From NCBI RefSeq assembly GCF_055900595.2, contig NZ_CM148325.1: a stretch of 64,000 bases of DNA; one strand, written 5' to 3'. A program made the translations under genes and the position numbers. Within the stretch, counting starts at the first letter, position 1, and each line of letters starts with the position of its first letter. Of this stretch, positions 6,283-31,547 are shown one piece after another. The notes beneath the pieces are model-generated. The model was not told where the DNA came from. It saw only the letters and a list, made by a program, of their open reading frames with translations, and did not search any database.

Positions 6283-6495
6283 AGGTTACTCCTTTTATCA
6301 TTGCCCGTTATGGGTCGATATCCGGAGATTACGCGATGAGAACGGCGGTTGTTATTCTCCGCAATCCTAATCTCTAAGTTACCGCATTTATTGAGAATTT
6401 CTCCTTTTTTCCTGTCGTTTTTCTCCATATTTTCTTCATAAAAAAGCCGGGCTGTATAAAAGCAAACCCGGCCTGATTGAGATAATGAATAGATG

Positions 6496-29355: not shown

Positions 29356-30372
29356 ATGTCCACATTACGCCTGCTCATCTCTGACTCTTACGATCCGTGG
29401 TTTAACCTGGCGGTGGAGGAGTGTATTTTTCGCCAGATGCCCGCCACGCAGCGCGTTTTGTTTCTCTGGCGCAATGCTGACACCGTGGTGATTGGTCGCG
29501 CGCAGAACCCGTGGAAAGAGTGTAATACCCGGCGGATGGAAGAAGATAACGTCCGCCTGGCGAGGCGCAGTAGCGGTGGCGGCGCGGTGTTCCACGATCT
29601 CGGCAATACCTGTTTTACCTTCATGGCTGGCAAGCCGGAATACGATAAAACGATCTCCACCTCGATTGTGCTCAATGCACTGAACGCGCTCGGTGTCAGC
29701 GCCGAAGCGTCCGGACGTAACGATTTGGTGGTGAAAACCGCCGAAGGCGACCGTAAAGTCTCAGGCTCGGCCTATCGCGAAACCAAAGATCGTGGCTTCC
29801 ACCACGGCACCTTGCTACTCAATGCCGACCTTAGCCGCCTGGCAAACTATCTCAACCCGGATAAAAAGAAACTGGCGGCGAAAGGCATTACGTCGGTACG
29901 TTCCCGCGTGACCAATCTGACCGAATTGCTGCCGGGAATTACCCACGAGCAGGTTTGCGAAGCCATAACCGAGGCCTTTTTCGCCCATTATGGCGAGCGT
30001 GTAGAAGCGGAAATTATCTCCCCGGACAAAACGCCGGACTTGCCGAACTTCGCCGAAACCTTTGCCCGCCAGAGTAGCTGGGAATGGAACTTCGGTCAGG
30101 CTCCGGCGTTTTCGCATCTGCTGGATGAACGCTTTACCTGGGGCGGCGTAGAACTGCATTTCGACGTCGAAAAAGGCCATATCACCCGCGCCCAGGTGTT
30201 TACCGATAGCCTCAACCCCGCACCTCTGGAAGCTCTCGCCGGACGACTGCAAGGCTGCCTGTACCGCGCGGACATGCTGCAACAAGAGTGTGAAGCGCTG
30301 TTGGTTGACTTCCCTGAACAGGAAAAAGAGCTACGGGAGTTGTCGACGTGGATAGCGGGAGCGGTACGGTAA
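29356..30372 (+). CDS. lplA: lipoate-protein ligase A
   Basis: 338-aa [69 protein letters not shown]…. Confidence 0.95.
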
Positions 30373-30403
30373 CTCGCTGATTAAAATATCCAGGGAAGGA
30401 AAT

Positions 30404-30667
30404 ATGATCGATCTGAAGAACCAGGAACGGGAGATTATCAATTTAATGTTCAGCCAGGGTATATCCTGGCTAACCGCCGTGCGTATCAGGCATAAACTAT
30501 CACTTGCTGAAGTTAGTAAAATGTTGGGTATCTCGATTAATTCTCTAAAACAAATCGAAAAGACGGAACGGCTTAGTTCAAACATCAAAAACAAAATGGC
30601 AGGAATTTATGGTTGTCCGCCAGAGTTGCTGATATGCCCTTACTGGATGACGGCTGAACATAAATGA
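30404..30667 (+). CDS. small hypothetical protein with a helix-turn-helix motif (87 aa), in the position K-12 yjjJ occupies
   Basis: ORF with strong SD (AGGGAAGGAAAT-ATG) 31 bp after the lplA stop; HTH-like segment LSLAEVSKMLGISINSLKQIEK; AT-rich. Confidence 0.4.
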   Translation: MIDLKNQEREIINLMFSQGISWLTAVRIRHKLSLAEVSKMLGISINSLKQIEKTERLSSNIKNKMAGIYGCPPELLICPYWMTAEHK

Positions 30668-30766
30668 ATAGATTCGTGAATAGATACTCGAATGGATTTA
30701 ATTTTCTATCCATATGAAAAATAATAGTAAATCTATAAATCAGTCGCTATTGATGAATAGATACTA
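30664..30766. repeat. three direct copies of TGAATAGAT(A/T)C downstream of the small HTH ORF
   Basis: Copies at 30665-30673, 30678-30686 and 30755-30763; the first overlaps the ORF stop codon. Confidence 0.5.
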
Positions 30767-30794
30767 AAAAGCCGGAGCGGTCTCCCGCTCCGGC
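30766..30794 (-). terminator. rho-independent terminator of the deo operon (after deoD)
   Basis: GCCGGAGCGG-TCTC-CCGCTCCGGC hairpin followed by a U-run on the minus strand. Confidence 0.85.
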
Positions 30795-30827
30795 TTCACA
30801 CGACAATCGCCTTTCAGCGAAACACAA

Positions 30828-31547
30828 TTACTCTTTATCGCCCAGCAGAACGGATTCCAGTGCGATTTTGATCATGTCGTTGAAGGTAGTCTGACGCTCA
30901 GCGGCAGTGGTTTGCTCGTGAGTGCGGATGTGGTCAGACACGGTGCAGATGGTCAGGGCTTTCGCGCCAAACTCTGCAGCCACGCCGTAGATACCAGCCG
31001 CTTCCATTTCCACGCCGAGGATGCCGTATTTTTCCATCACGTCGAACATTTCGCCGTCCGGAGAGTAGAACAGGTCAGCGGAGAACAGGTTACCAACGCG
31101 AGCATCAATGCCCAGTGCTTTAGCTGCATCTACTGCGTTACGCACCATGTCGAAGTCAGCGATAGCGGCAAAGTCATGGTCTTTAAAACGGATGCGGTTA
31201 ACTTTGGAATCGGTGCAGGCACCCATACCAATCACTACGTCACGCAGTTTTACGTGCGGCAGAACTGCACCACAGGAACCAACGCGAATGATTTTCTTCA
31301 CGCCGAAATCGGTGATCAGTTCTTTAGTGTAGATGGAGCAGGACGGGATACCCATACCGTGGCCCATTACAGAAATTTTGCGGCCTTTGTAAGTACCGGT
31401 GAAGCCCAGCATACCGCGAACGTTGTTCACTTCACGAGCATCTTCAAGGAAAGTTTCAGCAATATACTTCGCACGCAGCGGGTCGCCTGGCATCAAAACT
31501 ACGTCAGCGAAATCGCCCATTTCTGCATTAATGTGTGGAGTAGCCAT
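30828..31547 (-). CDS. deoD: purine nucleoside phosphorylase DeoD
   Basis: ORF 30828..31604; DeoD N-terminus [33 protein letters not shown] begins at an internal Met (239 aa). Confidence 0.95.

Follow-up and report, generated by a model that had tools for sequence, protein, structure and literature searches.

Short direct repeats between deoD and lplA in Escherichia coli are probably an orphaned control region of the toxin gene hipH (yjjJ)

Introduction

In the stretch of 64,000 nucleotides of E. coli DNA analysed here (the window), the interval between deoD and lplA carries a small open reading frame (ORF) for a helix-turn-helix (HTH) protein and, at its 3' end, a series of short direct repeats. 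The question raised by this locus is what these repeats are and to which gene they belong. A first-pass annotation of the window had offered two answers, namely that the repeats are binding sites of the small HTH protein, or that they are scars of the event by which yjjJ was removed. We favour a different reading, to which we assign a probability of roughly 0.65: the repeats would be the orphaned cis-regulatory array of hipH (yjjJ), the gene of a HipA-family Ser/Thr kinase toxin with a fused N-terminal winged helix which presumably represses its own gene, and in this window they would be a relic.

Results

Repeat units of the deoD-lplA interval

The interval (30373-30827) is bordered on one side by lplA on the plus strand, with its stop at 30372, and on the other by deoD on the minus strand, whose stop codon starts at 30828. 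Exact copies of TGAATAGAT are found on the plus strand at 30665-30673, 30677-30685 and 30754-30762, so that the triplet reported earlier is present, with its third copy starting at 30754 and not at 30755. The overlap with a stop codon is likewise correct, as the first copy covers the TGA (30665-30667) of the 87 amino acid ORF. The features of this part of the window are the following.

30404-30667, plus strand: 87 amino acid Xre-type HTH ORF, which extends with its last two codons and its stop into the hipH relic
30665-30673, minus strand: box 1, exact unit, ATCTATTCA in hipH sense, which adjoined the former hipH start codon
30677-30685, minus strand: box 2, exact unit, 12 bp from box 1
30689-30697, minus strand: box 3, degenerate unit CGAATGGAT with 7 of 9 matches, in the 12 bp register, absent from the first-pass annotation
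30754-30762, minus strand: distal box, exact unit, 65 bp upstream (in hipH sense) of box 3, measured start to start
30769-30796, minus strand: intrinsic terminator hairpin of deoD, with arms 30769-30780 and 30785-30796, complementary in 12 of 12 positions, and a 4 nt loop

The array is composed of three tandem units (30665, 30677 and 30689) with an exact period of 12 bp and of one distal unit. The distal box is located directly after the T-run of the deoD terminator, 7 nt from the hairpin, which is followed by TTTTT on the minus strand and bounds the element on its upstream side. The units are asymmetric direct repeats in which no dyad symmetry is present; the G+C content of the intergenic repeat region is 24%.

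It is unlikely that these repeats arose by chance. Four exact copies of TGAATAGAT were observed in the 64 kb window against 0.39 expected, any 9-mer occurring three times was found in 65 out of 20,000 shuffles of the 455 bp intergenic region, and pairs of matches 12 bp apart (with up to two mismatches each) occur in the window in this array only. The fourth exact copy, at 6486-6494 on the plus strand, is isolated, has no tandem partner and is probably a chance occurrence. A 42 amino acid ORF on the minus strand (30585-30713), which begins upstream of the boxes, reads through them and is antisense to the 3' end of the 87 amino acid ORF, is probably spurious.

Several known types of repeat were considered and rejected. 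The region is single-copy, with a median of one place per genome in 4,925 genomes, and the Rfam search gave no match reaching the gathering score in the region, which speaks against a dispersed family of the REP/BIME or ERIC type and against a known RNA family. Plasmid-type iterons are repeats of 17-22 bp located by a rep gene and an origin, while the present repeats have a period of 12 bp and lie in the chromosomal deoD-lplA interval, where there is no rep gene. An operator of the HipB type was dismissed since the units are direct repeats and no TATCC-N8-GGATA palindrome is present in the list of inverted repeats for 30300-30900. To our knowledge, none of the sites of ArgR, TorR, IHF, DnaA, DeoR and CytR fits the box in both sequence and spacing.

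Alleles of the interval in E. coli

The 455 bp interval of the window, referred to here as the HTH allele, is present as a whole in 4,037 of 5,426 complete E. coli genomes, and in 1,347 of them hipH (yjjJ) is found between deoD and lplA instead; hipH is missing in 74% of E. coli genomes. In genomes with the hipH allele, BLAST homology to the window begins at 30659, with about 82% identity, and the matching stretch is exactly the spacer between deoD and hipH. Read in hipH sense, this spacer ends in AAATCTATTCA AGTATCTATTCA CGAATCTATTCA TTA ATG, that is three perfect units with a 12 bp period which end 3 nt before the start codon, and a fourth unit 65 bp upstream abuts the deoD terminator. In K-12, AZ146 and E. 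albertii, box 1 of the window aligns with the unit whose end is 3 nt from the hipH ATG. Box 3, fused in hipH alleles to a -10-like hexamer, is perfect in K-12 and in the HTH-allele genomes S1, C311 and PK8568. The alignment adds three features to the window.

30659-30661, minus strand (CAT on the plus strand): relic of the hipH start codon, placed by the edge of homology, which now codes for His86 of the 87 amino acid ORF
30373-30658, plus strand: replacement segment of 286 bp in place of the 1.3 kb hipH coding sequence, holding most of the 87 amino acid ORF
30698-30753, minus strand: spacer with the decayed hipH core promoter, as identified by alignment to hipH alleles

The swap of the hipH coding sequence is exact, reaching from its start codon as far as the lplA stop. 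The 286 bp segment is missing from the hipH-allele genomes and has homologues in Escherichia and Shigella only. No hipH coding sequence (winged helix and HipA_C kinase) was found after the window array, where only the ATG relic remains. Because the coding sequence has been replaced by 286 bp with an unrelated ORF, we regard the window array as a relic and not as a working member of its class. The gene order deoD-hipH-lplA is common to the Enterobacteriaceae loci, which makes hipH the ancestral occupant of the site.

Since the repeats sit as an upstream region in the hipH alleles, they are neither made by a deletion nor tied to the new ORF. Judged by sequence comparison, the repeats of the window are the retained, putative upstream control region of hipH. 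Of the proposal that they are scars of the removal of yjjJ, the link to yjjJ is therefore upheld; the scar mechanism falls, as intact yjjJ/hipH alleles already contain the repeats, and the replacement has them on just one of its two sides. Comparison with other E. coli genomes speaks in particular against duplications at a deletion junction, the repeats being more perfect in intact hipH alleles than in the window. The related idea of a product of chance slippage which never had a function could appeal to the fact that 12 bp units can slip, exactly one having been lost in E. coli GN02270. The fixed positions of the units across bacterial orders, with flanks saturated with changes, refute it together with the scar on comparative grounds, and to both we give practically no weight.

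Other arrangements of the interval were encountered. E. coli HS-02 carries a third allele without hipH and without the 87 amino acid ORF, in which the lplA stop is followed by about 32 bp of other sequence, with loss of box 1 and damage to box 2. In E. coli CFT073 an IS200C copy is inserted exactly between the T-run of the deoD terminator and the distal box, so that all four boxes stay with hipH and hipH is parted from deoD. The HTH allele is found in E. marmotae too.

Across the relic spacer (30659-30827) K-12 and the window share about 82% identity overall, with 34 of 36 positions identical in the boxes and 31 of 62 (50%) outside them. This divergence is far above that typical of E. coli DNA, and the sequences suggest either that the polymorphism is old and balanced or that the HTH allele was imported from another lineage of Escherichia.

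Conservation of the array upstream of hipH

A search with YjjJ, limited to one genome per species, gave twenty loci: E. albertii, Pseudocitrobacter, four Buttiauxella, Dryocola, two Cedecea, Leclercia, Enterobacter Ag1, two Erwinia, five Yersinia, a Burkholderiales MAG and a Gallionellaceae MAG. All twenty carry the tandem motif with its 12 bp period directly before the hipH start codon. The five Yersinia loci have four tandem units, and the Burkholderiales and Gallionellaceae MAGs have units of the type ATCCATTCA/ATCTATTCA. When ATCTATTCA was searched with up to one mismatch, 78 matches were found in the twenty upstream segments of 140 nt versus 10 in 235 kb elsewhere, an enrichment of about 650-fold.

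The position of the units is as conserved as their sequence. The offsets of the tandem units are fixed at -34/-22/-10 or at -36/-24/-12, and in 18 of 18 Enterobacterales hipH loci the distance from the distal box down to the first tandem unit is 64-66 bp. In these 18 genomes two to four tandem boxes are present, starting at the -10-like hexamer and ending 0-3 nt before the ATG; in some distant homologues they are farther away. In a footprint alignment of 19 taxa the mean majority fraction is 0.97 in the box columns, of which 24 of 36 are invariant, versus 0.63 and 3 of 62 for the other columns. The conserved blocks left in this alignment are the distal box, a -35-like CTTTAC, a -10-like TATAAA and the remaining boxes, and nothing else. 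Box 2 is the most conserved unit among the 19 hipH-bearing taxa. On the basis of more than forty hipH loci the array can be defined by the core ATCYATTCA on the hipH-sense strand, of which the window holds, on its minus strand, three exact copies and one copy with 7 of 9 matches.

Association of the array with hipH

Five distant HipH homologues, with 33-43% identity, from hosts of 43-61% G+C and with unrelated neighbouring genes, have YATTCA-type units with a 12 bp period near the start of the gene, and several of the five also have a distal copy. The association was then read in the reverse direction, by searching metagenomes with the motif pair alone and with a spacer that excludes the E. 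coli sequence, which gave 80 readable loci. In 16 of these an ORF with the HipH N-terminal domain is present within 200 nt downstream, and for 15 of the 16 tblastn also identified HipA-type kinases. The hosts of these hipH-type loci include genomes of 63-69% G+C, in which the AT-rich boxes stand out. About 54 of the 80 matches have no HipH ORF downstream, and many of them are AT-rich, of low complexity, microsatellite-like or other 12-mer arrays; because such arrays match as well, the motif pair is not diagnostic by itself. Ten metagenome contigs carry perfect 12-mer tandem arrays with ATCTATTCA, in three to four units, with no HipH-like ORF downstream.

The pairing of array and hipH spans Gammaproteobacteria and Betaproteobacteria, differing neighbour genes and a host G+C content of up to 69%. 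No other gene was found to be conserved beside hipH in all the array-bearing loci, and as none is consistently linked, the DNA-binding domain which always accompanies the boxes is HipH's own.

In every HipH homologue with the wing sequence R-S-I-(Q/H)-Y (six loci) the codons (C/A)GA TCY ATT CAN spell ATCYATTCA inside the gene, at about +152 from the ATG, and these codons are kept even at 65-67% G+C, where they should be rare. This copy is a possible intragenic operator, although coincidence may explain it as well.

Promoter, leader and spacer

In hipH loci the order of the blocks in the spacer is distal box, CTTTAC (-35-like), TATAAA (-10-like) 17 nt further on, and tandem boxes, the TATAAA being fused to the first tandem box. 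In the window, AATTAA (30698-30703) aligns with the -10-like TATAAA/TAATAA and TATTAT (30721-30726) with the -35-like CTTTAC, and both blocks are degraded. Consensus scans of both alleles detected no sigma-70 promoter on the hipH-sense strand, and the terminator scan detected the deoD terminator only. Since the consensus scans were negative, the hipH promoter is assigned by the alignment and by one SELEX paper, in which an RpoD-holoenzyme site and H-NS are reported in the deoD>yjjJ spacer of K-12 (Shimada et al. 2014, PMC3946193); the -10 predicted there (TCTATT) falls inside a box.

In the hipH loci examined (the twenty species-level loci and the five distant ones) no Shine-Dalgarno sequence could be recognised before the ATG, with one exception. 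The sequences suggest that translation of hipH dispenses with a Shine-Dalgarno sequence or starts on a very short leader. In three metagenome contigs found by the motif the last box abuts the ATG directly.

These data bear on the possibility that the units act in the leader of the hipH mRNA, where repeated AUCUAUUCA would control translation or stability. The tandem units do fill the stretch from the -10-like hexamer to the ATG, and the lack of a visible Shine-Dalgarno sequence would suit such a role. The distal box, however, lies upstream of the -35-like block, and would hence not be transcribed with hipH, yet it is equally conserved; moreover the -10 is partly shared with the first tandem unit, Rfam gave no matching family, and a strict 12 bp phase with variable 3 nt spacers is typical of protein-DNA arrays. 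We consider a role in the mRNA improbable.

The winged helix of HipH as candidate reader

The first 55 or so residues of HipH are modelled as a winged helix (H1-β-H2-H3-β-β) with a pLDDT of 91.7. The closest PDB structures found by Foldseek are the ArsR/SmtB repressors HlyU, SqrR, CzrA, BigR and NolR, with an rmsd of about 1.7 Å over some 53 residues, about 30% identity and E-values of about 0.09, which are weak because the domain is short. A sequence search of the PDB with YjjJ gave no relatives. From Escherichia to Betaproteobacteria the recognition helix has the invariant pattern S-Q-x-T-x-S-R, in parallel with the invariance of the boxes; as both are essentially invariant, co-variation between them cannot be used in support of their pairing.

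The literature on HipH is compatible with a DNA-binding function. In Gerdes et al. 2021 (PMC8262856) it was noted that the HTH "may function to bind DNA" and possibly takes the place of the missing HipB, and no operator was described. The HTH was later reported to be required for toxicity and for nucleoid localisation (eLife 2024, PMC11452175), and in the same work c-di-GMP binds HipH and the control of hipH expression by c-di-GMP maps to the promoter region. The repeat element was not found described in the searchable literature, which was queried with the motif strings, for a yjjJ/HipH operator, SELEX or ChIP, and in the Reg-Seq preprint supplement.

On the strength of these comparisons the box array is probably the DNA site of HipH's own DNA-binding domain. 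We further think, with somewhat less assurance than for the reading as a whole, that the winged helix may autorepress hipH by binding the tandem boxes, whose positions coincide in part with the -10, the start site and the leader. In such a model the ArsR/SmtB-like winged helix of each HipH molecule would bind one box, head to tail, and bound HipH would occlude the -10, the transcription start and the leader of its own gene, with the distal box adding cooperativity. Self-repression would give this single-gene toxin the autoregulation which HipB provides in hipBA, and binding of HipH to its own promoter region could explain how c-di-GMP, a ligand of HipH, raises hipH transcription through that region.

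The main competitor is another host factor, such as H-NS, a different nucleoid protein or a c-di-GMP-responsive regulator, which would bind the boxes, control hipH and could still bind the orphan sites of the window. A ChIP-exo experiment with YjjJ, myc-tagged at native level in K-12, gave zero binding sites (Gao et al. 2021, bioRxiv 10.1101/2021.06.10.447994), a result which speaks against HipH as the reader but for which very low expression or the experimental conditions could account. The H-NS signal reported in the K-12 spacer, the low G+C content of the region, the c-di-GMP regulation of the hipH promoter, which has no transcription factor assigned, and the boxes largely intact in the 74% of E. 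coli without hipH would all fit such a factor. However, hipH keeps the array in Betaproteobacteria and in genomes of 60-69% G+C, beside wholly different neighbours, and the factor would have to be conserved in all such hosts and read the same 9-mer there, where only HipH's own domain is always present; H-NS, for its part, has no need for an exact 9-mer at an exact 12 bp phase. We hold a separate host factor to be unlikely, though the least so of the alternatives, and retain HipH as the candidate reader.

The 87 amino acid ORF

The 87 amino acid protein matches the Pfam families HTH_3 and Sigma70_r4 with scores just above the cut-offs. It is confined to Escherichia and Shigella, its matches outside these being distant phage regulators only. 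BLASTP detected no similarity between this protein and YjjJ, and their Pfam families differ, which speaks against its being a homologue of the HipH N-terminus, derived by inversion or sharing its specificity. In RefSeq the ORF is a pseudogene, with an internal stop or a frameshift, in four of nine sampled HTH-allele genomes, all of which keep the repeats. The genomes with the pseudogene fall in a band of about 93% identity which holds most E. coli, and many truncated versions are present in the protein database. Divergent homologues of the 87 amino acid protein represent the same locus at 93-97% DNA identity, several of them from error-prone assemblies, and have little power as a measure of box conservation in the absence of hipH.

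The proposal that the repeats are operators of this protein drew on their adjoining the ORF and overlapping its stop codon, and on the plausible HTH of the protein. It does not withstand the comparison: the array far exceeds the gene in age and in distribution, being present in the hipH alleles of E. coli and in more than forty hipH loci of other taxa which have no homologue of the 87 amino acid protein, and everywhere outside Escherichia it occurs without this gene. The sites are located 3' of the ORF and not at its promoter, no copy is present in the 31 bp spacer between lplA and the ORF, the units lack the dyad symmetry, the ORF is often broken, and the protein has no similarity to the DNA-binding domain of HipH. 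That the repeats serve the 87 amino acid protein is in our view very improbable.

State of the array in the window

With the replacement of its coding sequence the array has lost both the gene and the presumed binder. Within the HTH-allele sequences 5 of 36 box columns are variable versus 3 of 75 in the flanks, a comparison of little statistical power because the E. coli alleles differ too little among themselves. Box 3 is the most variable unit among these sequences. The deletion in E. coli GN02270 removes exactly one 12 bp unit from the region homologous to 30665-30690, which is a signature of slippage, and E. marmotae carries substitutions in further boxes; box 1, box 2 and the distal box of the window are still perfect. 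The array of the window is probably a decaying orphan relic and, as far as can be deduced from its context, inert. In terms of events, the 286 bp segment with its unrelated Xre-type ORF on the opposite strand would have replaced the hipH coding sequence and left the promoter and operator behind.

Discussion

The relic matters mainly for what it points to, namely how HipH is controlled, the feature itself being probably inert in this window. For HipH, a toxin without a partner antitoxin, a 9 bp box at fixed positions from Escherichia to Gallionellaceae bears both on the control of the gene and on the target of the HTH, and the array offers a testable link between the binding of c-di-GMP by HipH and the transcription of hipH. 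For annotation, the deoD-lplA interval of most E. coli is better described as a hipH promoter relic with an often broken Xre-type ORF than as a regulator with its own sites.

The most far-reaching form of this reading, for which we see an even chance, would be that the ATCTATTCA array is the missing operator of HipH, on which an ArsR-like winged helix polymerises along direct repeats until released by c-di-GMP. HipH and its array would then form a one-gene, ligand-gated module of toxin-antitoxin type, with the orphan operator in three quarters of E. coli and an extra box in the codons of the wing in some Betaproteobacteria.

Retention of a promoter and operator beside a conserved neighbour, here deoD, after the swap of a coding sequence is what is seen in other orphan relics of gene replacement. 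What sets the present case apart is a replacement precise to the start codon, and a new ORF that extends by two codons into the relic.

An autoregulatory operator is the expected kind of element for a toxin gene; what the searchable literature does not describe is the asymmetric 9 bp box, its head-to-tail array with a 12 bp period at a start codon without a Shine-Dalgarno sequence, and the distal copy. The closest functional parallel is hipBA, in which HipB is a separate Xre-type dimer that binds TATCC-N8-GGATA palindromes. In both systems a HipA-family toxin gene has multiple operator copies in and around its promoter, presumably bound by the module's own HTH, and negative autoregulation is expected, in line with the proposal that the fused HTH of HipH compensates for the missing HipB (PMC8262856). 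Unlike HipB, the domain of HipH is a fused ArsR-like winged helix whose binding is predicted, and the sites are asymmetric 9-mers in 12 bp tandem with a distal copy 65 bp away.

The ArsR/SmtB repressors are the best structural matches of the HipH N-terminus and have a similar recognition helix (SQ.T.SR), but their dimerisation helices are missing from the HipH domain. Domains of this type normally bind imperfect inverted repeats as dimers, whereas the hipH units are direct repeats.

For the geometry of the array, parallels are found in other families. Winged helices of the OmpR/PhoB type read direct repeats head to tail. BldC (PMC5859096) and the oligomeric winged helix protein RdfS (PMC11963761) are likewise small HTH or winged HTH proteins which multimerise on short asymmetric tandem sites spaced by about one helical turn. 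The likeness is one of analogy only: HipH has no sequence relationship to BldC, OmpR/PhoB or RdfS, the period of its array is 12 bp instead of 10-11 bp, and its DNA-binding domain is tethered to a kinase.
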